64,000 bases of DNA from Cellvibrionaceae bacterium 1162T.S.0a.05 (GTDB lineage Bacteria > Pseudomonadota > Gammaproteobacteria > Pseudomonadales > Cellvibrionaceae). The notes beneath the pieces were generated by a model. The model saw nothing but the letters and a program-made list of their open reading frames with translations, was not told the origin of the DNA and ran no database searches. Every line of letters begins with the position of its first letter. Within the stretch, counting starts at the first letter, position 1. Location of the stretch: NCBI GenBank assembly GCA_000964245.1, contig LANB01000001.1, positions 1,700,392 to 1,764,391 on the forward strand. Direction: 5' to 3'. The translations under genes were made by a program, and so were the position numbers. This document shows positions 4,690-56,153 of this stretch, piece by piece.

Positions 4690-4699
4690 GGTTCAACCC

Positions 4700-4950
4700 C
4701 GTTTAGTATTGCATTGGGATCGAGGGAGGCAAAAGAAGACGAGACTGCAAATGCAGGAAACAAGTCTGGATGGTAGCCCTCCGCTCCATCGTATTAAGTG
4801 TGATATTCACAGGCCGGTATCGGGCTTAGTACCAGAACTGCGTTCGGCACATCACCGTTGCGGGGGCAGCGTTGGAATGACAATGTTTGATCAGTTAACT
4901 CGAACTGAAGATTGGGTCACCAACTTCCCGTTTACCTTGCCCAGCATCTT
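4700..4950 (-). promoter_or_regulatory. Candidate cobalamin (AdoCbl) riboswitch in the about 470-nt btuB leader
   Basis: The 5' untranslated region upstream of btuB is long. The reverse complement contains GC-rich segments loosely resembling riboswitch core elements (cccGCaACgGTgA..., ...gcagtctcgtcttcttttgcc near the B12-box position). This was not verified by covariance model. Confidence 0.35.
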
Positions 4951-5165
4951 TGCGGCAAGCACCTGTAAACGCGGGCAATGTAGGGGATGTTTATGCTAAT
5001 GTCAACGTGGGGTCTGCTTGTGCTTTTTGGTCGAAGCGTATGATCGTGGCTTTTATTTCTGACTCAAGGCGGTGTCATTTGCTTATGAACATGGATCGTC
5101 TTATTGAAACACCACATCGGATAGCCGTTAATAACATTGCTGAATTAGAAGGGTTTTGAACGATT

Positions 5166-6824
5166 ATGTTTAGAAACTTTGTCATCGTACTCTTAATAGG
5201 CTTTATTGCGTATTTCTTTTATCTGGAAACCGAATTTCAACGCATGCCCAGGTTGAGCAGTGCTGATGCGCTGTTGCCGGATGGTAGCCGCTACTACGGT
5301 GAACTTAAAGACGGTGTTTTACACGGCAAGGGCGAGTTGCACTGGACGAACGGCGCGCGACTTAGCGGTAATTTTGTCGACGGTTTAATCGAAGGTGACG
5401 GGGAGCTAGCGCTTGCCGATGGTGGTCACTACACGGGAGGATTCGTTCAAGGCATGTTTCAAGGTCACGGTCGCTTGGAATATGCCAACGGTGATTGGTA
5501 TGAAGGTGAATTTGAAAAAGGTCTTTTTCAGGGGGTGGGAACCCTCGAAAGTCATGCTTTAGGCCGTTACGACGGTGAATTTAAACGCAATTACTTTGAT
5601 GGCGAAGGTGTGTTCACAGTAAACGGCGTAAGTTATAGTGGTCATTTTGAGAACAACGATTTTGTCAACGGAACAATGCTTGACCAGTCTGGAAACGAAT
5701 TTGAAGGTCAATTTAAAAACTGGATACTGAATGGTTCAGGGAGTTTTCGTAACCCCTCGGGCGACGAATATACCGGTAATTTTGTGGATGGCGTTTTGCA
5801 AGGTGAAGGTGAACACCGTGCTGTCACTGGAGAGTATTATAAAGGCGAGTTTCAGGATTTTTATTATTCAGGCATGGGTAAACTTGAGCTTGCAAATGGT
5901 GATTATTACGAAGGTGAATTTAACTTTGGTGAGTTTGATGGTAAAGGCAGCTACTACACCAAAACCGATAACGATGAACCCAAAGTTCTGAGTGGTACCT
6001 GGCGTTTTGGTGAAATACAACAAGGTTCACGAAATAAAAAGGAATCCGGGGAATATTTATCAAAATTTGAAAAGGCACTTTATCAGCAACCGGAACTTCT
6101 TGAGCAACAAGCGCAATCGGTTCAAGAAGGACAAGCAGGAAAAGCGGAATTATTTTTTCTAAGCGTCGCGGGTTATGGGAGACAAAAAGTCTTTCTTGAA
6201 GAGACAACACGTATTGCTGAACTGATGAATGAACATCAATTTTCAACCAACAGAAATTTTCAATTGGTCAATCATTACCGCGCTATCGACCAATTTCCGT
6301 TGGCAACACAAACGTCACTGAATATCGCCTTGGAAAATATTGCCGGCAAAATGAACCTGGATGAAGATATCCTTTTTCTCTATCTCACCAGCCACGGCAG
6401 TGAAAATCATGAATTCAGTATTGAACTACAAGGTGTAAAACTGCGGGATATTTCTGCAAAAGACCTCGCTGCGAGCCTTGAACAAAGCCCAATAAAATGG
6501 AAAGTCATCATGATTTCAGCCTGTTACTCAGGGGGCTTTATTCCGGAATTGGAAAATGAGCATCACCTGGTAATGACCGCGGCCCGCAAAGACCGTAAAT
6601 CTTTCGGTTGCAGTGATGACAGCACGATGACCTATTTTGCGCGCGCCTATTTCGAAGAAGCGCTGGACAAGAGTGGTGACTTTATCGCCGCTTTCCACCG
6701 AGCAGAAAAATTGGTTGCCGAATGGGAAGCACGTGACTTCCCCGACAGCGATGCATCACTCCCACAAATTTCTGTGGGCGCGGCGATAGAAGTGAAACTG
6801 CATGAGTGGCAACAGGGCTTGTGA
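5166..6824 (+). CDS. MORN-repeat protein fused to a C-terminal clan-CD cysteine peptidase-like domain (C13 legumain/GPI-transamidase-like His-Gly ... Ala-Cys dyad)
   Basis: An N-terminal TM helix is followed by about 12 MORN-type repeats (YxGEfkdGvlhGkGxL...). The C-terminal half has LYLTSHGSEN (His-Gly) and MISACYSGGF (Ala-Cys) at the spacing typical of caspase/legumain-fold peptidases. Confidence 0.65.
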   Translation: MFRNFVIVLLIGFIAYFFYLETEFQRMPRLSSADALLPDGSRYYGELKDGVLHGKGELHWTNGARLSGNFVDGLIEGDGELALADGGHYTGGFVQGMFQGHGRLEYANGDWYEGEFEKGLFQGVGTLESHALGRYDGEFKRNYFDGEGVFTVNGVSYSGHFENNDFVNGTMLDQSGNEFEGQFKNWILNGSGSFRNPSGDEYTGNFVDGVLQGEGEHRAVTGEYYKGEFQDFYYSGMGKLELANGDYYEGEFNFGEFDGKGSYYTKTDNDEPKVLSGTWRFGEIQQGSRNKKESGEYLSKFEKALYQQPELLEQQAQSVQEGQAGKAELFFLSVAGYGRQKVFLEETTRIAELMNEHQFSTNRNFQLVNHYRAIDQFPLATQTSLNIALENIAGKMNLDEDILFLYLTSHGSENHEFSIELQGVKLRDISAKDLAASLEQSPIKWKVIMISACYSGGFIPELENEHHLVMTAARKDRKSFGCSDDSTMTYFARAYFEEALDKSGDFIAAFHRAEKLVAEWEARDFPDSDASLPQISVGAAIEVKLHEWQQGL

Positions 6825-8485: not shown

Positions 8486-11400
8486 ATGTTTAAGCAAAAG
8501 ATACTGACGCGAGCGATACTCGCTGCGATGGGGTCGGCCGGGGTTTGCACGACGGCTCAGGCGCAATCTGACAATCCGGTTTCATTGGAAGAAGTTGTTG
8601 TTACTGGTATTCGAAGCAGTTTAGAGCGCGCAATGGACATCAAAAGATCTTCTACTGGCGTTGTTGACGCGATCTCGGCGGAAGATATCGGTAAGTTTCC
8701 AGATACTAACCTTGCGGAATCACTGCAGCGTATCACGGGTGTTTCGATAGACCGTTCAAACGGCGAGGGCAGCAAAGTCACCGTTCGAGGCTTCGGTGCC
8801 GCCAATAATTTGATCACCTTAAATGGACGTCAATTACCAACCACAACAGGTGATAGAACCTTTGAGTTTGGCAATATCGCTTCGGAGAGTGTTACCGCAG
8901 TTGAGGTCTACAAAACCTCTGATGCCGGCGTAACCTCGGGAGGTATCGGGGCAACAATCAATTTAAAAACGCATAAACCACTTGATAGCCCCGGCTTGAA
9001 AGCGACCGTCGGCGGCAAGCTTTTGGATGACCAATCCACTAACGAAGGTGGAATTACACCGGAGCTTAGCGGTTTATATTCTCAAACTTTTGCTGACGAT
9101 ACCTTTGGTGTGTCTATCTCAGCGAGTTTTCAGGAGCGCGAAAGCGGAACGCAGGAATTTATTGATAGCCAGGGCTATCGTGCTAGCGATTATACAAATA
9201 CCGGTTGGGGTGGTGTTCCTGCAGGTGCTGCGGGTGGTACCAATCGTCCAACTTCCGGTATCTATTCAAACCCGCAACAACCACGTTATTCATTTGAAGA
9301 GCGTCAACGTGAACGTATTAATGGGCAGTTGGTTTTGCAGTACCAACCTGTTGAAGATTTCACTGCGACCTTTGATTACACCATGGTTCAAAACACCACG
9401 GAAGAACAGCACACTGACGCCTCGGTATGGTTTAACTATGCAGGTGATCGCAGTGAATCAGTTTGGGATGGTGAACCCAATGCGGTACCACTGATTTATT
9501 CTGAAATTTATCCGCAAAATGGTGAGCCTTCAGATTTACGGGATACATCGTTAACCGTAGGTGCGTGGGGCCAGGAAGAAACCATTGATTCTCTTGGTTT
9601 AAATCTAGATTGGCAGGCCACAGAAGAATTAAGTTTTGTTTTGGATATTCACAGTTCTGAAGCAGAATTAACGGCAACTGATCCTCGTCACGGTACTCGC
9701 AACAATATTCAGTTGCCTTCCTACACACGTACACGAACCGGTCTGGATTTGCGGGGTGCATTACCTGGTATTGCCACCAGCAATATTGAACAATTCAATC
9801 CCTCTACCATGAGGTTGTCTGGAAGTTGGTTCCAGAACAGCTGGTACACCTCTGAAGTCGATCAGGCACAACTCTCGGGTAAGTTTGAGTTTAGCGAAGA
9901 AGCAAGTATTGATTTTGGCCTTTCTGTTAATACCGTCAACAATCGCTTTCGCTTTACCAACGTAGAACGCGCCGACTGGGGTGGTGTTGGTGTAGTGGGT
10001 GACTTTGCTGATGGCATTGACTGGAGAGAAGATACAATTCTGAATCATTTCCAGGAATCGCCGTCAGATTTTTCCGGTGTTGCATCGCAGTCTGAATACG
10101 ACTTGTTTGATCGAATCTGGTTCGCTGATTTTGACGAAATCGTTGCCGCAGCGGAACTTGCTGACCCTGAAGCGAACCCAACCGGGGGAGTGTTTGGAGA
10201 CTGTCAAGCAGCACCGGGCGCAGCAGCAGGCCCTAACGGTGAAGGGCAATTTTGTCCGAATACCAATTGGGACGGAAACCGTAACGAATTTACCGAAGAG
10301 GAAACCACCGCGCTGTTCGTTAAATTTAATTATGCCGGTGAAATCTCTGACAAACCCTACAGTATGCACTTGGGTTTACGGCATGAAACGACGGATGTCT
10401 TCTCGTCGGCTTCGGCATCTGGCTACAGCAGCGTAGTGTGGACAGAAGGAACGGCCACAGCATTGACGGGAGTGACTGATATCGAAACACTCAGTCAAAG
10501 TGCTGATTACAGTGTCTTTTTACCTAACTTCAATTTCAACATTGAAGCAACGGACGATGTAACTGTTCGCACGGCGATTAGCAAAACAATTTCCCGCGCG
10601 AGTTATCTCGACTTGTTGGGTGGTACAACTCTGAACACCACAGGTACTTTAAGTGGCTATCAGGGTAATTCAGGTAACCCTGGTCTTGAACCCCTTGAAT
10701 CAACCAACTTTGACTTGTCTGTGGAGTGGTATTACGACGAAGGGAGTTACGCGTCGTTGGGTTACTTCAGGAAAGATGTCAAAAACTGGATTTCTGTCGG
10801 TACGGTAGAGTCAACGATTTACGAACTACCTAACCCATTTGACGGAGAGAAGTTTGATGCGGCGGTTGCCGCACTTGGCGAGAATGCGTCTAATCAGTTG
10901 ATAAGGGCATACATTTTTGAAAACTATGCAGACGACCCCTACGTATTGCCGGATGATTCAGTTAACGGTGGAACAATTATTGGTGACCCTGCCACGGACA
11001 ATATTGTCGTCTTTGACATTGAAGTACCAGTGAATGGAGATAGAGAACATACCATTGATGGTATTGAATTTAATGTCCAGCATTTATTTGGTGAGTCCGG
11101 TTTTGGTACGGTATTTAACTACACCATGGTCGACACTGATCTGGAGTACGACAAATCGTCGCTGGGAGACACCGAAGCATTGATTGGTTTGAGTGATACC
11201 AGTAACCTGGTGTTCTTCTATGACAAAAACGGATGGGAAGCACGAATTGCGTATAACTGGCGTGACGAATTCCTGAGCGAGCGTCGAGTTAATGCAGATT
11301 TAACTGCACCTATCTACACAGAAGCCTATTCACAAATTGACTTCAATGTTAGCTATGACATTCCAGCACTTGAGGGCTTAAACGTATTCCTTGAAGGTAT

Positions 11401-45187: not shown

Positions 45188-45283
45188 TTGCCTTTCCTCG
45201 TTGATTAAAGGGTGCGCGATTGTATAGCGTGTTTTGACTGGTTGCAATAATGGCCTAAGGCCAGGTATCATTCGTGCCGCACC

Positions 45284-45360
45284 GCACCCGTAGCTCAGCT
45301 GGATAGAGTAGGTGGCTTCGAACCACTTGGTCGGGAGTTCGAATCTCTCCGGGTGCGCCA
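45284..45360 (+). tRNA. tRNA-Arg (anticodon reads TCG)
   Basis: Manual cloverleaf: 7-bp acceptor stem GCACCCG/CGGGTGC, D-arm GCTC/GAGT, anticodon stem GGTGG/CCACT with loop CTTCGAA, T-arm GGGAG-TTCGAAT-CTCTC, 3' CCA. It is near-identical in architecture to E. coli tRNA-Arg(ACG). Confidence 0.85.
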
Positions 45361-45364
45361 AATA

Positions 45365-45398
45365 AAAAAACCCCTGCAGAAATGCAGGGGTTTTTTTA
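45365..45398 (+). terminator. Bidirectional intrinsic terminator after the tRNA
   Basis: A-run, CCCCTGCA-gaaa-TGCAGGGG, T-run. Confidence 0.7.
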
Positions 45399-45492
45399 TT
45401 TGGTGGTCCTGGAAGATGAAAACTCCTCAGTTCGACAAATTTGACAGGATCAAATTTGGGCGCCCAAAGGGCGGGCGAAGCCCGAGCCACAG

Positions 45493-45558
45493 GGAGGTGG
45501 CGAGTCCATCTCTCCGGTTGCACCAGATCAAAACCCCTGCAGAAATGCAGGGGTTTTT
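45493..45558 (+). repeat. Direct repeat of the tRNA-Arg 3' end (degenerate T-arm/acceptor) plus a second copy of the terminator hairpin; att-like remnant
   Basis: GGCGAGTCCATCTCTCCGGTTGCACCA compares with the tRNA GGGAGTTCGAATCTCTCCGGGTGCGCCA. It is followed by an identical CCCCTGCAGAAATGCAGGGG hairpin. Confidence 0.6.
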
Positions 45559-45569
45559 GATTCCAGGGC

Positions 45570-46085
45570 CTACTGCAAACAATCTGCGGGGCTCAATACA
45601 CCTTTACCCCCTCTATTCACGACATGTGTATAGATTTCTGTTGTAGAAATATCAGCGTGCCCTAACAATTCCTGAATAGTACGGAGATCATAGCCAGACT
45701 CGAGTAGGTGCGTAGCAAAACTATGTCGGAAACCATGAGCCTTGGCAGGTTTATGAATTTTCGCTGCTTTTAGCGCCTTTCGAATTTGCTTGCTCAGTGC
45801 GCTTGCGTGTAGATGATGTCGTCGGAGTTCACCATTCCTGGGGTCAGGCCCTATGCGGGAAGATGGAAAAAGAAATTGCCAGGCAGTTTCGCGTGAAGCA
45901 CTCGGGTACTTCCTTTCAAGGGCATCCGGTAAATAAACACTGCCAAAGCCATTGCTAATATCTTTACGGTGTAAGCGCTCAGCTTTTTTAATTTGTTCTT
46001 TCAAATCTGGAACAAGTTTTTGTGGAAGTATCGTTGTACGATCCTTGTTTCCTTTTCCAGCCCTTACATAAATGTTATTGGCATA
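45570..46085 (-). pseudogene. intI: Integron integrase (IntI) fragment; the C-terminal about 170 aa are intact and the N-terminal about 150 aa are missing
   Basis: The translation matches the IntI-specific C-terminus, including the additional domain and catalytic residues. This window reads [18 protein letters not shown]...[41 protein letters not shown]...[12 protein letters not shown]. Recalled IntI1 reads SGIDPRSGVRRRHHMY...[56 protein letters not shown]. Upstream in frame, [18 protein letters not shown] is like IntI1 IIVREGKGSKDRALMLPE. An in-frame stop follows, with no N-terminal homolog in any frame. Confidence 0.8.
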
Positions 46086-46213
46086 GAAACCTATATTCCA
46101 TTTTCAATTGTCCTGCGGCAATATAATTCGAAATGCTTAGAGTTAAGTTACTGATTTGATTTAACTTTTGAATTTGTTCAAGGGACCCCTGAAATTAATT
46201 CCCCGTAGATCGC

Positions 46214-46361
46214 TTGGCTTGTTAATTCTGAGCTGTTAAAGTCATAGACAAACCTATGTTATTGAATTTAAATAGGAATTTTTTAATTTCAAGATTTCAT
46301 TAGCCGAGTTATAAGGCGAGGTGTTATGTGGCCTCTTGGCTTATTAATTAACTGTTAAGGC
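46214..46361 (+). promoter_or_regulatory. attI-like region with two imperfect 27-bp direct repeats and a GTTAAGG core at the first cassette junction
   Basis: cttggcttgttaattctgagctgttaaagtc (46214-46244) versus cttggcttattaattaactgttaaggc (46335-46361). GTTAAGG at 46354-46360 lies 8 bp before the first cassette ATG. Confidence 0.5.
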
Positions 46362-46367
46362 TACCTA

Positions 46368-46703
46368 ATGAAGAAAGCACTACTTTTCTGCATATTTATA
46401 TCAAGCTGCGCGTTTAATAACGGATATTTCGTGGCAAGGGAATTCTATGGCAAGCCCTATAACATTCCTGTTTACGATGGCCTAGATTTAGGTGAAGCAG
46501 AAAGCGCAGTTAGCTTTGTTCAAACAATCATTGATGAAAATGAATATATTATGAATGTATCAACTGTCACAAGTTATGTAGTTATTAGGACTCATGTTGG
46601 CATTCCAAATAAGAACCAAGCCGGAAAAGCGGGCCCCAGCTACTATCTTCGAAAAACTGAGTCTGGATGGGAAGCAAATGAACCAGTCACATGGATAGAA
46701 TAA
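46368..46703 (+). CDS. Integron cassette ORF 1: small lipoprotein/secreted hypothetical
   Basis: Signal/lipobox MKKALLFCIFISSCAF. 111 aa. The stop lies 10 bp before the attC inverse core. Confidence 0.5.
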   Translation: MKKALLFCIFISSCAFNNGYFVAREFYGKPYNIPVYDGLDLGEAESAVSFVQTIIDENEYIMNVSTVTSYVVIRTHVGIPNKNQAGKAGPSYYLRKTESGWEANEPVTWIE

Positions 46704-46712
46704 ATTCTACAT

Positions 46713-46804
46713 GCCTTAACAAGCCAAAGCACTATTCGCCGCAAAAAGCGCGGCGCGGACTCGCTACACGTTGTTTCGCTCGCCCGTGTTTGGGGCGTTA
46801 AGGC
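46713..46804 (+). repeat. attC site 1 (92 bp)
   Basis: Inverse core GCCTTAAC-AAGCC at the 5' end and GGGGC-GTTAAGGC at the 3' end form an imperfect palindrome. The next ORF starts 6 bp after the core. Confidence 0.7.
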
Positions 46805-46809
46805 TCACT

Positions 46810-47262
46810 ATGAAAAAATTAATAACAAGTACACTGTTTTTGTTTTCTCTAAATGTTCATGCCATTGAATGCCCTGAGTCGGATAAGCTCGATCTAAATG
46901 GATTTTGGGATAAGTCCATCGAAGTGTTTCTTGGCAGGGTTGTTTCTTCGAAGTTAATTGAAAGCAGTGACCCAGAACTAATTGAAATAACAATAAAAGT
47001 TAAAGAAGTATTTAAAGGCAATCCGAAAGCAGAAATTACAACCAAATCATACGAGTCACTTTCTTGGGCAGGAACTACGGTTGGAATGAACTCAATCTAC
47101 TTCAGTGATGGTAAAAACTATATTGATGTATGCTCAAAAATACTTGAAATAAACCCAGGAGAAATTGATTTAGAGGAATTATTCGTTTACACAGACAGAG
47201 CAGATATAACATATGCAAAGGATATTGAGAAAGTGCTTAAGCTTTCCGGGAAAATGCCTTAA
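46810..47262 (+). CDS. Integron cassette ORF 2: secreted hypothetical protein
   Basis: Signal peptide MKKLITSTLFLFSLNVHA. The stop codon TAA lies inside the next attC inverse core GCCTTAAC. Confidence 0.5.
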   Translation: MKKLITSTLFLFSLNVHAIECPESDKLDLNGFWDKSIEVFLGRVVSSKLIESSDPELIEITIKVKEVFKGNPKAEITTKSYESLSWAGTTVGMNSIYFSDGKNYIDVCSKILEINPGEIDLEELFVYTDRADITYAKDIEKVLKLSGKMP

Positions 47263-47380
47263 CAAGCCGGTGAACTACAGGCAGCAAGCTGCCCCGGACC
47301 TCCACCGCGTGGTTCGCTTATGTGCTTTAATAGCACAACGGAAACAACTCCATTCCGGCCCGTTACCGGAACGTTATGTT
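47256..47380 (+). repeat. attC site 2 (about 125 bp)
   Basis: It begins GCCTTAACAAGCCGG and ends ...CCGGAACGTTATG, with an internal palindromic segment (GGTTCGC / CGGAAC). Confidence 0.5.
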
Positions 47381-47777
47381 TCGAGTAATTTAATCTGCAA
47401 ATGTTTCGCGTAACTAATGAAGTCTTTATCGGTAGTAAAAATATTTAATCTAAGGCGCACAGATACGGCGCAAATTAGAAAATCTGTATGTGAACCCTGA
47501 ACGCCTTTCGCACGGCAAAAATTTGAATACTCAGCAGCACATTCATAATCAGCGTCTAACACTGGCTCATTGGGAAAATACTGGAGTTTTTGTCTGAGCT
47601 TATAGTACTTGTTTTTATCAGAGTACCCAGAGAGCAACTCTTGGCGTATCGGTCCAATTTCCTTACTTGGTTGTCATCTATTATCTGGGATAGCTGGGTC
47701 GCTATAGAGGTCTCTTTGGGGGTGCTGCCTCGTAACGCTAGGGACCAAACGCAAGTATCTACAAGTACCCCGCTCAT
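47374..47777 (-). pseudogene. vapC: PIN-domain toxin VapC, frameshifted (N-terminal ORF 47556-47777 and C-terminal ORF 47374-47637 overlap out of frame)
   Basis: N-terminal LVDTCVWS (PIN Asp motif) and C-terminal TDKDFISYAKHLQIKLLE are split over two frames. The ATG overlaps the vapB stop (ATGA). Confidence 0.6.
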
Positions 47778-47968
47778 TTGCGGCCCTTTTTGTAGTCATA
47801 ATCAGTATCTTGGGGTAGGCTGCCAAATAGAGAAGTTATTTCTCGTTGTTTGCGGCGCTGTACGAACTCCATAAGTGCTTGATTTGCAGTGTCTTTTTTC
47901 GTGGAGAGCCCACTAATTATGAGGGCTTCATTTAATAGTTCAGTATCAATTGAAAGGTTGGTAGCCAT
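47774..47968 (-). CDS. vapB: VapB-type RHH antitoxin
   Basis: MATNLSIDTELLNEALIISG is an Arc/MetJ-type N-terminus. 64 aa. Confidence 0.6.
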   Translation of the reverse strand: MATNLSIDTELLNEALIISGLSTKKDTANQALMEFVQRRKQREITSLFGSLPQDTDYDYKKGRK

Positions 47969-48014
47969 GCTCACACCTCTTGGCACACAAGTATCCACAC
48001 AAAGCGTTACACAA

Positions 48015-48128
48015 AGCTAACAAGGCAGTCAACCTGACGCCGCGTGCTACGTTCAGCTTTGGGATGGCTACGCCATTTTACTCCAAAGCTTCTCTCCACA
48101 CGCAACGCAGGTTACTGCGACGTTAAGA
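48015..48128 (+). repeat. attC site 3
   Basis: AGCTAACAAGGCAG at 5' and CTGCGACGTTAAGAG at 3'. The GTTA overlaps the parE stop codon on the opposite strand. Confidence 0.45.
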
Positions 48129-48425
48129 GTTTTTGAGATTTCTCGCGACGTCCATTCGCTTGTGAAGAATGCGAATTATTTCAATGTGAGAGCCGGAGCC
48201 ATCTTTATAAAAAATAACATGGCTTCCTTGAGGAAATTTTTTATATCCTGGCAAAATGTAATCGCACTTAGCGCCGAGGTCAGGAGATTCAGCTAAAGCA
48301 TGAAAAATTTCATCTAATTGTTTTAGGTATATGTTTCGTTGGTTTCGACCCCACTCTTCTTCAGTGTAAATTGCAATATTCTTTAGGTCTGCTTTAGCTT
48401 TGGCCGTAAGCTTGAAAGGAATCAT
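48123..48425 (-). CDS. parE: ParE/RelE-family toxin
   Basis: 100 aa; the IAIYTEEEWGRNQRNIYLKQLDEIFHALAESPDLG pattern is typical of ParE. Confidence 0.7.
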   Translation of the reverse strand: MIPFKLTAKAKADLKNIAIYTEEEWGRNQRNIYLKQLDEIFHALAESPDLGAKCDYILPGYKKFPQGSHVIFYKDGSGSHIEIIRILHKRMDVARNLKNS

Positions 48426-48426
48426 T

Positions 48427-48666
48427 TTAATGGCTGTCTTCGTCCAACTCAGATATCAAACCTTCAAGGCTGTAATCTACAAAACCACTTTCTTCCCCTT
48501 CATTAAGCAAGCGTCTCAAGGTCCCAAGCTTAGATTCGGTATCTTCCAACATTCTCAATCCGGCTCTCACCACTTCACTAGCAGAGCCATACCGTCCGGA
48601 CTCAATTTGCTGGGCAATAAAATCCTCAAAGTGCTCCCCAAGGGTTATGCTCGTGTTTTTAGCCAT
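48427..48666 (-). CDS. parD: ParD-family RHH antitoxin
   Basis: [41 protein letters not shown] is the canonical ParD/CC2985 pattern. It is 1 bp from parE. Confidence 0.75.
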
Positions 48667-48699
48667 AATTCACCACCAGTAGTACCAAATATTGGTATA

Positions 48700-48810
48700 T
48701 ATTGGTATAAAGCTCTTGGCAAGTCAATTAACTTAGAGCCTTTGGCGCCGGACAGCCTGCACGCCGCTTTGCTCTGTTCCGGTTGACGGTTATTGAGGTG
48801 TTATGGCCCT
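48700..48810 (+). repeat. attC site 4 (boundaries approximate)
   Basis: The 3' core GGTGTTATGGCCCTCACTA parallels the attC1 3' end GGGCGTTAAGGCTCACTA. The internal CTCTTGGC...AATTAAC echoes the attI repeats. Confidence 0.35.
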
Positions 48811-48834
48811 CACTAAACGAGAGATATTTAGCTA

Positions 48835-49374
48835 ATGCTAATTTGGTTTATTATTGCTTGCGAGGTTGGTTTTTGGGTAGTTCTTGTATTAGGCCTATTT
48901 GTTAGATTTGTACTGAAATTACATGTTCTAAGTAAATATATTTTACTATGCGTACCGCTTTTAGACCTCATGCTTCTCGTAGCAACTGCTATAGATCTCA
49001 ATAATGGAGCATCAGCAGAGTTTGCACATGGATTAGCTGCGGTATATTTAGGCTTTACAGTGGTGTACGGAAATAGGGTTATTAGATGGGCGGATAGTTA
49101 TGTATCTTATAAATTCTATTCTGGCAAGAACCCTAAAAGCCAAGTCTATGGTTGGTCATATGCTAAATACGAGTGGTTTGAGTGGTTTAATGGGCTATTA
49201 GCGTGCGCTGTAGCTGTAATACTGCTAAGCATTGCAATACTTTATATTGATAATTCTGAAAGGACTGAGGCCTTGGTTCAGTGGTTCTCACACTTATTTT
49301 GGTTGTTGCTCATTTGGCTTTTAGGTTGGCCTGTTTGGTATACAGTATTTCCAAAAAAAGAGAAAAAGCCATAA
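48835..49374 (+). CDS. Integron cassette ORF 5: polytopic membrane protein of unknown function
   Basis: 179 aa with about 5 TM helices. The stop TAA lies inside GCCATAACAAACGGC, an inverse-core-like motif. Confidence 0.45.
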   Translation: MLIWFIIACEVGFWVVLVLGLFVRFVLKLHVLSKYILLCVPLLDLMLLVATAIDLNNGASAEFAHGLAAVYLGFTVVYGNRVIRWADSYVSYKFYSGKNPKSQVYGWSYAKYEWFEWFNGLLACAVAVILLSIAILYIDNSERTEALVQWFSHLFWLLLIWLLGWPVWYTVFPKKEKKP

Positions 49375-49421
49375 CAAACGGCTCCACGCAAACGGCCAAA
49401 CCTACGCTGCGTCATTCTTGA

Positions 49422-50114
49422 CTAAAGACGACGCACTTTTATATTACGAAACCAGACCTTTTCCCCATGATGTTGAAACATGATATGCCCTTCGCGAGAC
49501 TGGCCGAAGATGGGGTTATCTTTGAATTTACTGTCTTTAATTTTTCTTTTTAATTCATCACTGCCAATAGTAAAATCCAGAACTTTAACGCCATTCAAAT
49601 AATGTGTTACCCGTCCGTTATCAACTACCAAGCGAGCCTCGTTAAACTCACCCCAGGGCCGGACAGCACGACTTGCAGGAGCGATCAGATCATATAAAGA
49701 ACCTGCAGAGCGTTCTGGGTCTTTATCATAGAAATTTACATCATCCTGAATCTGTATTTCGAAATCATTTAGCCAATTGGGGCTATTGCCATTTCCTGAT
49801 TCCATATCGTTAAGTTCTTTAACATGAAAAAATAGCCCGCTGTTTCCTGCTTTTGATACCTTCCAATCGTAAACCAGTTCAAAACTTTCAAATGTATCTC
49901 GCGTTACGATGTCTACGTTGTCTACATCCGAAAGTGTCGCCAGTGTACCGTCCTCGATCGCCCATGCGTTCGCTGGAAACGTCTCCATCCGGTAACCACG
50001 CAATAAACTTGTATCCTGTCCATCAAATAATACAATCCACTTTGGTTCAGCTTGAACTGAATAAACAGACAACATACAGATGAGGCTTAGCAAGCCTTTA
50101 GCTTTATTTATCAT
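49422..50114 (-). CDS. DUF1080 (3-keto-disaccharide hydrolase / LamG-like) secreted protein
   Basis: Signal peptide; the ...GHIMFQHHGEKVWFRNIKV C-terminus is typical of DUF1080. Confidence 0.7.
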   Translation of the reverse strand: MINKAKGLLSLICMLSVYSVQAEPKWIVLFDGQDTSLLRGYRMETFPANAWAIEDGTLATLSDVDNVDIVTRDTFESFELVYDWKVSKAGNSGLFFHVKELNDMESGNGNSPNWLNDFEIQIQDDVNFYDKDPERSAGSLYDLIAPASRAVRPWGEFNEARLVVDNGRVTHYLNGVKVLDFTIGSDELKRKIKDSKFKDNPIFGQSREGHIMFQHHGEKVWFRNIKVRRL

Positions 50115-50654
50115 TATTGTTACCTTTTTTGATTTTTAACCCTGGTCTGCTATCTAAGAGATAATGGAGTTATTGAGACCACGATTAGTGAAATAGTTGG
50201 TTCACTTTTGTGGCCGTGAAGCGTAAGTAGTTCTCACGAGGTTATCACCCTTATGGTTAAGACTCGGTGGAAACAAGGCCATACATTGTGATTTCACCAA
50301 ATATTGCTGAAGTAGAACCCATGCTATTGTTTTATAAGTATTTTTTTTGTTTGCGGAAACACTTATTTCGCCTGCCCATTGACAATGGGTGCGATTTGTA
50401 GCGTTGGTTTAACATGATAGACTCTTAATTTCTTTATTAGCTTTTTCGTTTTTGGCAGCAGTAAATGAAATTTAATCTAAAGAAGAGAAAGTTCATACTT
50501 GGGGCCATGGCTTACGCTATCAGCAGCCTATATGCTCGAGTTATGAAGGTTTGAGTCTATAGAGCTTGTTCTCACAGCGCTATGAATGGCTATCCAGCGC
50601 CTCTGTGGCCCATGCACCCCAGTCAAAACGCAACTCACAAAGCGATAGAAGCTT

Positions 50655-51320
50655 ATGAAAATCGTTCTCCTACCAGGGCTAGACGGTACAGGTAATTTAT
50701 TTGATTCGTTAATAAGGTTCTTACCTGCAGAGGATGTAGAAGTTATTGCATTACCGGATACAGGTGAACAAACATACGAAGCCTTAGTTGAATATTGCCA
50801 AGCAAAGATGCCAAAGGAACCTTACATTTTGGTTGCTGAATCCTTTTCAGGTCCCATAGGTATCAAGCTGGCTGAAAGCGATATTGGAATAATGACGAGG
50901 CTTGTACTTGTTGCAACTTTTGCCGCCCCACCAAAACCCCTTTTATCGAGAATTTGTTCATTACTTCCCATGAAGGGGCTTTTGCGCTTACCTTTTTCGA
51001 TGCTAGTGTCGCGAACACTATTCCTGGGATTTAACACGTCTAAAGAAGTCCTGGAAAAATTTCTAAGCTCCATTGCTAGTGTTCCATCGGAAATTTTAGC
51101 GCAACGCTTGCGCGTGGCGTCTTCATTTGAGTGTGGAGTAGCATCTATAAAAGTGCCAGTAATCTATATCCAAGCGACAAACGATGTATTAGTTCCTAAA
51201 AAATGTTTTGGCCTGGTAGAGAAGCTTGCACATAATTTAGAGCTAAAAAGGGTGGATGGACCACATTTTATATTGCAATCCAATCCTGAAGAATGTGCAC
51301 AAATCATTGTTTCTGAGTAA
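50655..51320 (+). CDS. Alpha/beta-hydrolase-fold protein (serine esterase-like)
   Basis: Nucleophile elbow VAESFSG. 221 aa. Confidence 0.55.
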   Translation: MKIVLLPGLDGTGNLFDSLIRFLPAEDVEVIALPDTGEQTYEALVEYCQAKMPKEPYILVAESFSGPIGIKLAESDIGIMTRLVLVATFAAPPKPLLSRICSLLPMKGLLRLPFSMLVSRTLFLGFNTSKEVLEKFLSSIASVPSEILAQRLRVASSFECGVASIKVPVIYIQATNDVLVPKKCFGLVEKLAHNLELKRVDGPHFILQSNPEECAQIIVSE

Positions 51321-51406
51321 GGCTTCTTGAAAAAACATGTGATGGCTGAATCCCAAACGAACCTCGAAAATACCTGGTTGGCTTTCGCCTTTTATGACGA
51401 GTTGCT

Positions 51407-52489
51407 TTAGGGCAGATCAACCACTTCCACCCAGCTTGGATTTTTGCCAACAGCGTAACGAGCCAAATGAGTGAGTTGGCCACTGGATTGATCAATTTTG
51501 TATACGCTCAGATGGTTTGAGAGCTGTCCCGCTGATAGTAAGAACTTTCCATCAGGGCTTAAGGTAAAACTTCGGGGTTTGGTTTCGGTGGGAACGCTTT
51601 CAATCAAGGTCAGGAGACCGCTTTGTTGGTCTCGCTGAAAAACATTGATTGTATTTGTGCGGCGCTCAGAGGTGTAAACAAACTTTCCATTCGGTGTAAT
51701 CTGAATTTCCGCTGCTGAGGGTTTTTCCTTGAAGGGTTTCTTTGCCATGAGAATCGATTGTTTCTCGGTGAGTACACCGCGGGCCTTATCGAAGGCATAA
51801 ACATTGACTGTGCCATCCAGCTCGTTAAGTAGGTACACAAATTTTTGATCTGGTGAAAAGCGTATATGGCGGGGGCCTGACTCCTTAGCTGTTTTAATGC
51901 TGGCAGGAGAGTTCGGGCTCACTTTTCCTGTACTGGCATCGAATTTAAATTGCATGACCTGGTCGCTGCCCTTGTTGGCAACAAAAAGAAATTGGTTGCT
52001 GCTATCAAGCAAGAGTGAGTGCGCATAGAGCCCCGTGGGGTACACACTCACACTTGCTTCCTGTACGAGGCGCTTGTCATCGAGCCTGTTAACCATCAAT
52101 GCGGAACTGCCATAAGAGGTTGTTAATACATTTTTTCCGGAAGTATCGGCGTGTACAAAGCAAATATCGTGGGGAAGCACGGCTTGCGATTGCTCGGTCA
52201 GTTCGCCGTTAGTGGACTGTATTGAAAATGATACGATGGAATAAGGCGTAGAACGAATGGCGGCGTAGAGGGTTTTTTTATCGGGGCTTACCGCGAGGGG
52301 CATAACGGAATCGCCTGCTTTAACGCGTTGCGCTAAATGAAGTTTGCCCGTTTCTTTGTCCATGTTGTAGGCAGCAATTTCACCGTCATCTGCATTGGAA
52401 ACGTATACCATGGTGCGTGCAAGTGATGTATTGCTGAAAAATAAAACCGACAATACAGACAAACAATAGCTAAAAAAAAGTGATTTCAT
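51407..52489 (-). CDS. Lactonase, 7-bladed beta-propeller (6-phosphogluconolactonase/Pgl-like), secreted
   Basis: Signal peptide MKSLFFSYCLSVLSVLFFSNTSLA. Repeated propeller blades (YVSNADDGEIAAYNMDKETGKL...). The start was chosen at the M of MKSLFF. Confidence 0.75.
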   Translation of the reverse strand: MKSLFFSYCLSVLSVLFFSNTSLARTMVYVSNADDGEIAAYNMDKETGKLHLAQRVKAGDSVMPLAVSPDKKTLYAAIRSTPYSIVSFSIQSTNGELTEQSQAVLPHDICFVHADTSGKNVLTTSYGSSALMVNRLDDKRLVQEASVSVYPTGLYAHSLLLDSSNQFLFVANKGSDQVMQFKFDASTGKVSPNSPASIKTAKESGPRHIRFSPDQKFVYLLNELDGTVNVYAFDKARGVLTEKQSILMAKKPFKEKPSAAEIQITPNGKFVYTSERRTNTINVFQRDQQSGLLTLIESVPTETKPRSFTLSPDGKFLLSAGQLSNHLSVYKIDQSSGQLTHLARYAVGKNPSWVEVVDLP

Positions 52490-55451
52490 GATGAACTCTT
52501 CGTTTGGGTATTCTTCACTTAGGCATTTTTTATTTAAAACGTTATTTAGATCTTTATTCAGGAGTGGCCTGATACTTGTTGTATGCAGCGTGGGTATGCA
52601 CCCCTGTTTTGGCGCGTCCTTTGTTGAAACGAGCCCTGACCAGTATACCCAGGACGAAGTGGTCATTTCGGCAGGAGAACGCCTCTACGGCCGCTATTGT
52701 GCAAGTTGTCACTTACTTGAGGGCGAAAGTTTTGGTCCGCAATTGGGCGGCGTTACCCAGGTAGTGTCAACAGAGGACCTGCACGATTTTATTCGCAACC
52801 CGGCCTCGATCATGGCCTCCGGGAATCCACGTGCCTCAGCGTTAATGCAGCGCTACAAAGTCATGATGCCGGGGTTTGATCAGCTTAAGCAGCAAGAAAT
52901 CCAGGCAATTCTGGCCTACATTCACCTGCAATCCAACAAACGTGAAATTGCAGCTCTCACACTGGACGCCATTTTAAATACAGGCAGCCACAAGCGCCTT
53001 CTCCCGCCGGTGGTGCAGTCGGGCATTGTGGTCGAGCTGGAAGAGTTTGCTCGCCTCCCGACCCTGGAAAATCGCCCTGCCTATAAAGGCATTACCTCCA
53101 TGCGTGTGGACCCACGCAGAAAATCAGCGTATTTCGTTAATGAACTTATGGGGATTTTGTATTCTGTAAGGAAGGGCAAGCATGCAGTTTTTCTGGATTT
53201 GCGGCCCCACTTCCCGAAATTTATGTATGAACCGGGCGTGGCCAGTGGGCTCGGTAGTTTTGCGATGCACCCCAACTTTAAAGAAAACGGAATTTTTTAT
53301 ACCACGCACTCGGAAATTCGTCGCGGCTCGCCCGCCATCAATGAAGACGATATACCCGCAGATGTGCCTGAACATGAATCGCCCCCCCTTGAGTGGGTGC
53401 TAAGTGAATGGACTTTAAAGCAACCCGCTGCACCGCACTTTGAAGGCAGCCGACGAGAAGTGTTGCGTTTTGTGACGCCAACCACTGCGCACGGCGCCCA
53501 GGAAATTAAATTTTCGCCCGTGCGTGACCCACATCATCCGGATTACGGCATGCTTTACATCGCTTGTGGTGACGGTGGTGCAATTAATCTAAAACGCCCT
53601 GATATGGCAGGCCATCCGCATACCCTTCTGGGCACGATTATGCGTATTGATCCCGCCGGCACCAATGGTAAAGGCGGTGGTTATGGCATTCCTGAAGACA
53701 ACCCTTTTGCAAACAGTGAAGACCCGATGGTGCACAAGGAAATCTGGGCCTACGGTTTTCGCAACCCTCATCGTTTTTCCTGGGATGCCAAAAAATACAA
53801 ACCGATGATTGCGATTGATATTGGTGAATCCAATATTGAAGAGATCAATATTATTAAAGCCGGTGGTAATTATGGTTGGGGGCAGGGCGGCCTTGAAGGA
53901 ACTATGGCCATCGACCCCATAAAAGACCCGACACAGGTTTCACCAGCGAGTGCTGAACTTTTGCGTCAACATTTATCGCCCTACGGGCAATATGATCACA
54001 ACGATGGCACGGCCATTACGGGGGGCTATATTTACCGTGGCCCACTCAAAGCATTGCAGGGAAAATATATTTTTGGCGATATCGTCAATGGCCGATTGTT
54101 TTATATGAATATGGATGCGCATCAATTTGCCGGTGTGAGGGACAAAACGATTTACGAAATACAAATACAACAAAAGGGCCAGCTCACCAGTGTACGTGAA
54201 ATGTCGCAAGTTGAACGGGCGCATTTACGCCTTGCTTACGATGCAGCTAAAGGCGAACTTTTTATACTGACAAAAGATGACGGACGTATTCGGCGTATTG
54301 TTTCAGCACGTTATAGCGAAGACGCGAAGAGTGATAGTGCGAGTGAAAACACAGCCCATGCCCAAATAAAAGGAAAAGAAAAAGAAAAAACAAAAACCTT
54401 CGGCATCCACAGTGAAACTTTTGGTTTAAATGAAGCTGGCGAAATGGTCACGCAATACAGCCTCACCAACAAACAAGGTAGCCAGGTCAATATCATTGAT
54501 TACGGCGCAACAGTAGTTTCGCTTTTTGTTCCCGACCGTAAGGGGAACTTGGCCGACGTGGTAATAGGCTACGACAACATGCCGGACTATGAACAGCGCA
54601 GTCACAATTTTGGCTCCACCATTGGACGCGTTGCCGGGCGCATTGCGAATGCGCAATTTGAATTGGACGGCAAACGTTATCAACTACCGAAAAATTTGGG
54701 TGAGCATACACTTCACGGTGGCCCGCAAGGTTTTGATAAAGTGATGTGGCATATGACGGAGCAAAGTTATACCAGCGAAGGTGCAACACTGACATTGCGC
54801 TATGAAAGTGCAGATGGTGAAATGGGTTTTCCCGGTAACTTGATTGCTTATGTCAGTTATACCTTTACGGAAGACAATGCTCTAAAAATACAGTATTCCG
54901 CCACCAGCGATAAGCCGACACCCTACAACCCCACCCATCACAGTTATTTCAATTTAAAGGGGGAGGGCAAGGGCAATATTTTTGATCACAGCCTACAAAT
55001 TTTTGCTTCAAAAACGCCTGCCACGCTCAATGTTTTTCCGACAGGCGAGATTAAAAATATAGAAGGCAGTGTGCTGGATTTTCGACGCCCCACATTGATT
55101 GGAAAGCGTATTCTCGACCCGAGCCTGGAAGCACGAAGAGGTTACAATGATTTTTATATTTTCGATAAGGTCGGCGATGAGCTTGCGCACGTGGCGACCC
55201 TGGCGGAAGAAAAAAGTGGGCGCAAAATGGAAGTGTGGACAACCGAGCCTGGCTTGCAACTCTACACCGGGAATTGGTTGAATGATCAATTAGTGGGTAA
55301 AAGTGGTGTGCCCTACGTGCAGTATGGCGGTGTGTGTTTGGAAGCGCAGCACTACCCGGATTCACCCAACCAGCCCTTGTTTCCCGATACGATTTTAAGG
55401 CCAGGTGAAAAATTTGAATCGACAACGGTTTATAAATTTTCAGCGCGATAA
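52488..55451 (+). CDS. Tri-domain periplasmic oxidoreductase: cytochrome c, PQQ-dependent (soluble) sugar dehydrogenase beta-propeller and aldose 1-epimerase (mutarotase)
   Basis: CASCH heme motif. An sGDH-like region (GLGSFAMHPNF...GGNYGWGQGG). The C-terminal galactose-mutarotase fold has VCLEAQHYPDSPNQ. The exact start is uncertain, since the annotated start overlaps the divergent lactonase start. Confidence 0.7.
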   Translation: MMNSSFGYSSLRHFLFKTLFRSLFRSGLILVVCSVGMHPCFGASFVETSPDQYTQDEVVISAGERLYGRYCASCHLLEGESFGPQLGGVTQVVSTEDLHDFIRNPASIMASGNPRASALMQRYKVMMPGFDQLKQQEIQAILAYIHLQSNKREIAALTLDAILNTGSHKRLLPPVVQSGIVVELEEFARLPTLENRPAYKGITSMRVDPRRKSAYFVNELMGILYSVRKGKHAVFLDLRPHFPKFMYEPGVASGLGSFAMHPNFKENGIFYTTHSEIRRGSPAINEDDIPADVPEHESPPLEWVLSEWTLKQPAAPHFEGSRREVLRFVTPTTAHGAQEIKFSPVRDPHHPDYGMLYIACGDGGAINLKRPDMAGHPHTLLGTIMRIDPAGTNGKGGGYGIPEDNPFANSEDPMVHKEIWAYGFRNPHRFSWDAKKYKPMIAIDIGESNIEEINIIKAGGNYGWGQGGLEGTMAIDPIKDPTQVSPASAELLRQHLSPYGQYDHNDGTAITGGYIYRGPLKALQGKYIFGDIVNGRLFYMNMDAHQFAGVRDKTIYEIQIQQKGQLTSVREMSQVERAHLRLAYDAAKGELFILTKDDGRIRRIVSARYSEDAKSDSASENTAHAQIKGKEKEKTKTFGIHSETFGLNEAGEMVTQYSLTNKQGSQVNIIDYGATVVSLFVPDRKGNLADVVIGYDNMPDYEQRSHNFGSTIGRVAGRIANAQFELDGKRYQLPKNLGEHTLHGGPQGFDKVMWHMTEQSYTSEGATLTLRYESADGEMGFPGNLIAYVSYTFTEDNALKIQYSATSDKPTPYNPTHHSYFNLKGEGKGNIFDHSLQIFASKTPATLNVFPTGEIKNIEGSVLDFRRPTLIGKRILDPSLEARRGYNDFYIFDKVGDELAHVATLAEEKSGRKMEVWTTEPGLQLYTGNWLNDQLVGKSGVPYVQYGGVCLEAQHYPDSPNQPLFPDTILRPGEKFESTTVYKFSAR

Positions 55452-55754
55452 AAATCGACAAGGAATCTGAACCGTACTCTGCCGGTTGCGAATGTTTCTC
55501 GTTATCAATTGGCTAGGTCTTGCCTGTGCGCTGTTTGTGCGTCCACCTTGAAAGACATCCATTTTTGTTATGCCTCCGTATACTTTTATGAGCCTAAGCC
55601 AGTTGTCCTGGCTCCATACGGTGTTAAAGGGTGGCCGAAACGCGCATTCACTGGTATTTGCGGGCGATTTTGCCCCTGGTTACTGCTAGCGGCAGCATTT
55701 GCCGCTATAATTCAGCCACAAATTTTGAACTGACTGATTCTTAAGGTGAATTAC

Positions 55755-56153
55755 ATGAAAAAAGTGTCCTGGTTGGCGCTAGCAGTTGTGGCTTTGGCGT
55801 CATTTGCCTCGGCGGAAACGGTTGAAGATCGTATCAAGCCAGTGGGTTCTGTCTGTATGGCAGGCGATGATTGTGCTTCGGGCGCAATACAGTTGGCTGC
55901 GGCTGACGGCCCTCGTAGTGGTGAAGATGTGTATAAGAAAGCGTGTACAACCTGTCACGCAGCAGGTATTGCCGGCGCACCCAAGTTGGGTGATGTGGCG
56001 GCATGGGCGCCTCGCATCGAGAAAGGTATTGATGTGCTGTACACCAGCGCGATCAAGGGTTTGAACGGGATGCCTGCGAAAGGTATGTGTTTTGACTGTT
56101 CTGACGACGAGCTGAAGGCATCCGTTGATTATATGGTGGAAAACTCCAAATAA
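55755..56153 (+). CDS. Cytochrome c5-family monoheme cytochrome
   Basis: RBS AGGTG, signal peptide, CTTCHAAG heme-binding motif. Confidence 0.8.
   Translation: MKKVSWLALAVVALASFASAETVEDRIKPVGSVCMAGDDCASGAIQLAAADGPRSGEDVYKKACTTCHAAGIAGAPKLGDVAAWAPRIEKGIDVLYTSAIKGLNGMPAKGMCFDCSDDELKASVDYMVENSK

Follow-up and report, generated by a model that had tools for sequence, protein, structure and literature searches.

Does the DNA directly downstream of a tRNA-Arg gene in Cellvibrionaceae bacterium 1162T.S.0a.05 hold the remains of an integron and, if so, how far do they reach, can the cassettes still move, and did an island carry them there? An initial annotation, made from the sequence alone, had described the segment from 45361 to 50650 as a low-GC accessory island carrying an integron remnant: an integrase gene (intI) truncated at its 5' end, an attI site and at least five cassettes, probably frozen. 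We followed up this description in the whole stretch of 64,000 nucleotides in which the segment lies (contig LANB01000001.1 of assembly GCA_000964245.1, forward-strand positions 1,700,392 to 1,764,391; hereafter the window, with coordinates counted from its first nucleotide). Our analysis leaves little doubt that the locus is a degenerate chromosomal integron beside tRNA-Arg in a Cellvibrionaceae-like gammaproteobacterium. The remnant, with its 5'-truncated intI, its attI and five cassettes, is a clean but ordinary case of a known genomic relic, and the earlier call, including its 'probably frozen', withstood both a search with an attC covariance model and a comparison of the integrase fragment with IntI and Xer proteins.

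An integron integrase truncated at its 5' end

45570-46103, minus strand: intI pseudogene, about 178 C-terminal codons (TIGR02249, alignment with VchIntIA, translation)

Translation of the minus strand revealed an open frame that runs from 46103 to a stop codon at 45570-45572. Its product matched the integron-integrase model TIGR02249 over model positions 148-314 of 315 (E=1.9e-73, 247.6 bits), whereas the best Xer model, that of XerD, matched a short stretch only (E=1.4e-26, 93.6 bits). Fragment residues 6 to 174 also gave one continuous alignment with residues 149-318 of the 320 of VchIntIA (2A3V), and the IntI-specific segment between patches II and III, VWLPTALKEKYPNAPYEFRWHYLFPS, is retained and aligned with its VchIntIA counterpart; the structures of XerC, XerD and XerA, by contrast, align around the catalytic motifs only (fragment residues 94-168). 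The fragment is thus IntI rather than Xer, and the proposed C-terminal integrase half with its IntI-specific insertion is borne out.

What is missing is equally well defined. About 147 N-terminal model positions are absent, in agreement with the approximately 150 residues previously noted as lost, and with them the core-binding domain and the box I arginine region (LxYGxGxR). The catalytic lysine, H-x-x-R, histidine and nucleophilic tyrosine are kept, as judged by their positions in the VchIntIA alignment; of the complete set (R-K-H-R-H-Y), only the first (box I) arginine falls in the missing part. Because this arginine and the N-terminal domain are gone, the intI remnant cannot be active, and its product would be unable to bind or cleave DNA properly. 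IntI homology stops at an in-frame TGA (46104-46106), the longest open reading frame (ORF) in the remnant uses a TTG start at 46004, and at the DNA level relatives are similar over 45576-46079 only. In a protein-level comparison, the same 144-amino-acid ORF was present on a 945-bp contig assembled from independent reads.

Look-ups of the exact proteins found no conspecific genome, only short contigs of identical sequence, and no genome in the collection came closer than 75% amino acid identity in the flanking kinase. The closest integron found (L002) is metagenomic, with 79% IntI identity and 8 attC sites; a second metagenomic relative (L061) has 75% IntI identity and at least 6 attC sites. 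Both L002 (intI at 4484-5463) and L003 have an intI frameshift in the GLDIG/DLAFKPAQ region, and the L061 intI (~9880-10825) has CTG in place of its ATG start. Together with a 5'-truncated copy in L059, described below, these cases make intI decay look common in the clade. Two functional interpretations of short intI frames were considered and excluded: a natural split of intI into ORFs of 132 and 193 amino acids, as L002 and L003 are frameshifted (the recurrent 193-amino-acid 'IntI' proteins in the database start at the conserved methionine of LMYGSG), and a conserved C-terminal 'mini-IntI' protein, as the short database ORFs begin at differing residues.

Four attC sites at the cassette junctions

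To search for attC sites we trained a covariance model (R2) on 13 sites from the L002 and L061 arrays, none of them from the window. The sites were placed in a common register: xxxTAAC, AAG, 5 bp, one extrahelical base, at least 4 bp, a variable centre, the complementary arm, GGC and GTTAxxx. In these relatives, 89.9% of the cells are paired as compared to 62.4% in shuffles and 26-47% with the partner slid, and 9 pairs show compensatory changes. Masking the centres as N let the model learn the insert lengths, and the whole window was scanned unfiltered on both strands. R2 gave exactly four matches at E<=10 in 64 kb, all on the plus strand and all at the predicted junctions:

46714-46803, plus strand: attC1 (R2 36.4 bits, E=6.7e-7; position-weight scan 35.7)
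47257-47379, plus strand: attC2 (R2 35.0 bits, E=1.5e-6)
48015-48128, plus strand: attC3 (R2 33.3 bits, E=4.1e-6)
48714-48806, plus strand: attC4 (R2 19.3 bits, E=0.016; position-weight scan 24.7)

At E<=1, R2 had no match in ~720 kb of non-integron Cellvibrionales loci. A separate scan by position weights and pairing returned the same four sites with scores of 36.9, 35.7, 35.7 and 24.7, as compared to a maximum of 22.6 in 20 shuffles and 19.1 for the next match in the real sequence. Two simpler searches were set aside. A mini covariance model without the variable centre (R1) had no match in the window and failed on most of the L002 and L061 sites used to train it, a failure of design; a crude scan for 6/7 R''/R' complementarity with a minimum-free-energy hairpin recovered attC1 only and was dropped, since in an array it is the next cassette that contributes the outer R' bases.

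Three of the sites are structurally canonical, one is degenerate in R'', and a fifth (attC5, below) is cut. Each attC has its extrahelical base at a fixed position, and the bottom strand of attC3 folds to a canonical hairpin of -28.1 kcal/mol. attC4 keeps its L box and R', and its R'' reads TCTTGGC where TAAC is expected; it is probably impaired. Its 5' end (48713-48733, CTCTTGGCAAGTCAATTAACT) resembles the attI repeat at 46333-46353 (CTCTTGGCTTATTAATTAACT), with GGC for AAC in R''. The junction cores noted earlier, GTTAAGG (46354, 46797) and GTTATGG (48800), are present and are joined by GTTATGT (47373) and GTTAAGA (48122).

A retained attI and the site of the intI deletion

46104-46212, no strand assigned: AT-rich filler without detectable homology, in place of the 5' half of intI
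46213-46241, plus strand: upstream copy of the attI crossover region, CTTGGCTTGTTAATTCTGAGCTGTTAAAG
46243-46360, plus strand: native intI-attI spacer and attI (alignment with the L002 and L061 attI regions)

In L002 and L061 a short spacer separates the intI start from a site ending in ...AATAAAC(T/C)GTTA(A/G). Positions 46262-46360 of the window align with these attI regions and match them box for box at 46301-46360, which hold four GTTA-type boxes and, at 46354-46360, the crossover core GTTAAGG. The attI is therefore conserved with two related integrons and, from this alignment, apparently intact. The 27-bp direct repeats reported for the region are also present, as a repeat of ~27-30 nt at 46213-46241 and 46335-46360. 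Among the chromosomal integrons of marine gammaproteobacteria, L002 and L061 are the closest that we found. The integron shares with L002 and L061 its IntI clade, a four-box attI with a GTTA(A/G) crossover, and attC sites built from TAAC-AAG, 5 bp, an extrahelical base, at least 4 bp and GGC-GTTA; it differs from them in its truncated intI, and the chromosomal contexts are unrelated, with no cassettes in common.

Alignment with the relatives places the expected intI start codon at ~46243-46245. From where IntI homology stops to this point (46104-46242), ~140 bp match nothing except the ~30-nt copy of the attI crossover region at 46213-46241. This copy, GTTAA core included, ends at the expected intI start, that is, at the junction of the 5'-half deletion; as a speculative reading, it would fit a loss of the 5' half of the integrase gene through its own off-target recombination at a GTT core. 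The reverse complement of the copy, AATTAACAAGCCAAG, is similar to the R''-L'' half of both attC1 and attC2. There was no support for a decayed tandem duplication of greater length in the attI region: TRF reported none, and only the last ~30 nt align well.

Five cassettes, the last of them cut

Cassette limits were set by the crossover points between G and TT of the cores.

46355-46797, plus strand: cassette 1, ORF of 111 amino acids at 46368-46703 with lipobox ISSC and no family match; attC1
46798-47373, plus strand: cassette 2, ORF of 150 amino acids at 46810-47262 with a signal peptide and no family match; attC2
47374-48122, minus strand: cassette 3, inverted, vapB at 47774-47998 and vapC at 47374-47777; attC3 (plus strand)
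48123-48800, minus strand: cassette 4, inverted, parE at 48123-48425 and parD at 48427-48666; attC4 (plus strand)
48801-49400, plus strand: cassette 5, YmcC-like membrane protein of 179 amino acids at 48835-49374; 5' attC remnant only

The packing of the ORFs is typical of cassettes. Stop codons had been said to fall inside the inverse cores, and those of two of the three forward ORFs do (ORF2 inside GCCTTAAC, ORF5 inside GCCATAAC), while ORF1 stops 10 nt ahead of its inverse core; the vapC and parE stops are the complement of TTA in the R' cores. Of the proposed lipoproteins, as judged by eye, ORF1 alone has a lipobox, and ORF2 has a plain signal peptide. The small lipoprotein, the secreted protein and the YmcC-like membrane protein are without known function, and PADLOC found no match between the cassette proteins and known defence systems.

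The two toxin-antitoxin (TA) pairs are unequal. ParD (PF03693, 6.8e-33) and ParE (PF05016, 7.4e-19) are encoded by intact ORFs 1 nt apart. VapB matches VapB_antitoxin (PF09957, 2.6e-14), but vapC, recognised by a Pfam PIN match and by positions 43-124 of the NCBIfam VapC model, has one frameshift near 47650-47665 that divides it between two frames. The VapC toxin is predicted to be inactive, unless the frameshift is a sequencing error, so that only one of the two pairs first listed is intact as encoded. Upstream of parD (48667-48712), two direct repeats of TTGGTATA overlap the palindrome ACCAAATATTGGT; together they look like the autoregulatory operator of a promoter belonging to the parDE cassette itself.

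ORF5 is followed by a 5' attC-like half, CCATAACAAACGGCTCCACG (49369-49392, half-site score 10.5); a search across the window for the 3' half of this attC5 returned chance-level matches only. Homologues of the cassette-5 protein at 75-78% identity occur in runs of small co-oriented genes on two metagenomic contigs (L064, L065), where they share the 5' leader ATTTAGCTAATGCTA. In L065 a weak attC-like site begins at the stop codon of the homologue (best R2 match 13.4 bits), and the attC-like sites of both contigs are mostly too diverged for R2. These array-like contexts support the window copy being a cassette with a cut attC.

Several points weigh against the locus as we read it. The intI truncation and the vapC frameshift were both seen in one assembly; attC4 is marginal (E=0.016), with an R'' without AAC; the half-site score of attC5 is not exceptional in the window, and the evidence for this site comes from its context; and a crude consensus scan of the plus strand from 46104 to 46368 found no sigma-70-like site for a cassette promoter (Pc).

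The integron ends near 49400

49422-50114, minus strand: DUF1080 / 3-keto-disaccharide hydrolase gene, outside the integron (Pfam 5.4e-43)

The integron-derived stretch stops at ~49400, not at 50650 as first drawn: what lies from 49422 to 50650 is the DUF1080 gene and non-coding DNA without attC. This gene begins ~30 nt past the attC5 remnant, and neither R2 nor the position-weight scan found an attC at the gene or in the 535-bp spacer up to 50654. Its closest named homologues are from Bacteroidota (55-62% identity), and its nearest homologues stand in ordinary chromosomal contexts, where the adjoining genes encode GMC oxidoreductases or form the dcw cluster. That the gene is a sixth, inverted cassette was excluded on these two grounds, the lack of attC and the contexts of the homologues. 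The DUF1080 gene is the first of a group at 49422-55451 that continues with an alpha/beta hydrolase, a 7-bladed lactonase and a 987-amino-acid fusion of cytochrome c, glucose/sorbosone dehydrogenase and aldose 1-epimerase, plausibly a gene group for sugar oxidation.

An array that decayed in place

IntegronFinder defines a CALIN as a cluster of attC sites lacking integron integrase, in which two or more attC sites are spaced by at most 4 kb and no neighbouring intI is intact (Cury et al., 2016, PMC4889954). The locus has 4 attC sites within 2.1 kb, and the sole intI nearby is truncated. Sedentary chromosomal integrons are defined by more than 19 attC sites or by presence in 100% of the genomes of a species (Cury et al., 2016, PMC4889954); here 4 attC sites are complete, and the rest of the 64-kb window has none. 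We therefore class the locus as a CALIN with a recognisable intI pseudogene, a class that is already known: intI pseudogenes lie near 15 of 279 CALIN (~5%), and integrase loss has been proposed as one origin of CALIN (Cury et al., 2016, PMC4889954). Like other members of the class, it lacks a functional intI, two or more of its attC sites fall within 4 kb, an IntI C-terminal pseudogene lies no more than 10 kb away from them, and the array is small (~5 sites), with unknown cassettes and no resistance genes. Unlike them, it has kept attI and the native intI-attI spacer, having decayed in situ rather than become detached. With attI and spacer still present it is a clear intermediate of in-situ decay, and it does not depart from the known kind of element.

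We propose the following history. A complete integron (intI, attI, array) would have sat just downstream of the tRNA-Arg terminator. The first ~150 codons of its intI would have been lost and replaced by ~140 bp of unrelated AT-rich DNA, and the distal array would also have been lost, with a cut inside the fifth attC. The array that is left is presumably static by itself and would be mobilised only by an integron integrase supplied in trans. Given such an IntI, cassettes 1-3 should in principle still be excisable. With the AAC of attC4 lost and attC5 cut, cassettes 4 and 5 have probably become fused. For expression, the forward cassettes presumably need either read-through or a promoter within the 118 bp of spacer that remain, and they may be silent.

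A known parallel is the superintegron of Vibrio cholerae and other sedentary integrons, in which self-promoted type II TA cassettes of the ParDE and VapBC types are likewise interspersed (Richard et al., 2024, PMC13108822). Stabilisation by TA cassettes through post-segregational killing has been proposed for chromosomal integrons (PMC13108822); by analogy, the self-promoted parDE, and formerly also vapBC, could serve as an addiction module that selects against loss of the array. Nearly throughout the window GC skew is positive, which would place the attC bottom strands on the leading-strand template, as in V. cholerae; this orientation is reported to be conserved and excision-limiting in chromosomal integrons (PMC13108822). 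The superintegron differs in having hundreds of cassettes where here there are five, and here the integrase is dead and the attC sites are heterogeneous, 90-123 nt long with dissimilar centres.

The array might not be frozen at all. It could be a satellite array, still serviced by an intact IntI encoded elsewhere in the genome, a reading to which we give a real but minor share of the probability. Half of the CALIN surveyed by Cury et al. (2016, PMC4889954) occur in genomes that encode an IntI elsewhere. In the window, attI and attC1-3 seem structurally competent, and the 178 codons of the intI remnant are free of internal stops, which points to a recent truncation. However, no second IntI from the 4.4-Mb contig appeared among the best 120 IntI relatives in the protein database (a weak argument), the 64-kb window has no other intI or attC, and vapC, attC4 and attC5 have decayed.

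The tRNA-Arg gene and the question of an island

45284-45360, plus strand: tRNA-Arg, anticodon TCG (ARAGORN; Rfam tRNA 63.9 bits)
45367-45395, plus strand: terminator-like hairpin, copy 1, directly after the tRNA (12-bp perfect stem)
45459-45525, plus strand: decayed direct copy of tRNA-Arg (last 18 nt 16/18; weaker, with indels, further 5')
45530-45558, plus strand: terminator hairpin, identical copy 2 (29/29 with copy 1; 12 nt from the intI stop codon)

tRNA-Arg is the single tRNA that ARAGORN found in the window, and an Rfam scan reported nothing but tRNA above threshold. The duplication of the tRNA 3' end and terminator was confirmed: besides the identical hairpins, 45343-45368 and 45508-45533 match at 85%, and no such match is expected by chance. 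Yet an island 'carrying' the integron is not supported by this repeat. It lies 165 bp downstream of the tRNA, between it and the intI stop codon, so the integron is not bracketed; the repeat marks an older event at the tRNA. The locus resembles tRNA-associated P4-type islands in its location at a tRNA 3' end with a degenerate tRNA-end duplicate alongside, and differs from them in that it has no bracketing repeats and the window encodes no phage- or P4-type integrase. As to base composition, the GC content of the segment described as low is 0.40-0.42 against a window mean of ~0.46, a mild deviation that 12-18 kb and 20-22 kb equal.

We compared the neighbourhood with that of a Cellvibrionaceae metagenome-assembled genome, L004, whose flanking histidine kinase is 75% identical in amino acids. 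In L004 a gene for 76 amino acids, tRNA-Arg and the cytochrome c gene are adjacent; the 10.3 kb that occupy 45361-55697 in the window, ahead of the cytochrome c gene and its promoter at 55698-56150, are absent, the sugar-oxidation group among them. The interval between tRNA-Arg and cytochrome c is thus variable, L004 being one distant comparator. The tRNA-Arg(TCG) itself is 78/78 identical in L004 (18698-18774, compared with 45275-45397 of the window), where its orientation is reversed with respect to the two conserved genes on either side. The tRNA end and terminator of the window form an inverted repeat with 31-nt arms (45348-45378 / 45383-45413; 87% complementary), which may be the footprint of this inversion.

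These observations bear on whether 45361 to ~55.7 kb is a single tRNA-targeted island that delivered the integron remnant along with the sugar-oxidation genes and whose own integrase was later lost, which we regard as improbable, slightly more so than a serviced array. The closest genome with this neighbourhood does lack the 10.3 kb, tRNA-end repeats adjoin the tRNA, GC is somewhat low over 46-52 kb, and a 5'-truncated intI is the cargo of a 5.9-kb tRNA-Met island with perfect repeats in L059. On the other hand, the sole tRNA-end repeat precedes intI, with none at 49.4, 50.65 or 55.7 kb; an integrase of P4 or phage type is lacking; GC over 52-55.5 kb equals the genome background; and L004 is distant, with its tRNA inverted, so that the absence there may reflect loss or rearrangement. 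Decay in place of an integron that stood beside tRNA-Arg remains the reading we prefer.

The element in L059 (GCA_021773435.1, JAJFKC010000020.1, 9319-15258; also in L060) is an intact integrative element of ~5.9 kb at tRNA-Met; the tRNA forms one of its limits, and the other is a direct repeat of the tRNA 3' end, perfect over at least 24 nt (~48 nt by eye). It encodes a P4-type integrase, an HTH_17 protein and a replication protein, and its cargo includes a 5'-truncated intI of 238 amino acids, 71% identical to the window fragment, but no attC. The same genes occur on a contig of 5872 bp from a different sample. This cargo intI, together with the scarred tRNA-Arg of the window (decayed copy, duplicated terminators, inversion relative to L004), leads us to raise, as a long shot, that integron fragments in the clade may be moved by tRNA-targeting integrative elements. 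If true, islands that capture intI, attI or cassette segments would be a route by which CALIN and remnants spread between sites and genomes.

Finally, that the fragment belongs to a generic Xer or phage tyrosine recombinase of a tRNA island, with chance palindromes for attC sites, can be dismissed in spite of the adjoining tRNA and of Pfam reporting only a general Phage_integrase domain, given 247.6 bits for TIGR02249 against 93.6 for XerD, Xer structures that align over residues 94-168 only, and four attC sites with E down to 6.7e-7 and none elsewhere.

Implications

The locus provides one well-resolved example of a chromosomal integron decaying in place, with the signs of decay found together: a truncated integrase, a retained attI, one attC that is degenerating, a clipped array and one intact TA cassette. 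The survival of this TA cassette fits the view that such cassettes help arrays to outlast their integrase. The locus also extends the integron record to a Cellvibrionaceae lineage of which the nearest integron relatives are known only from metagenomes.

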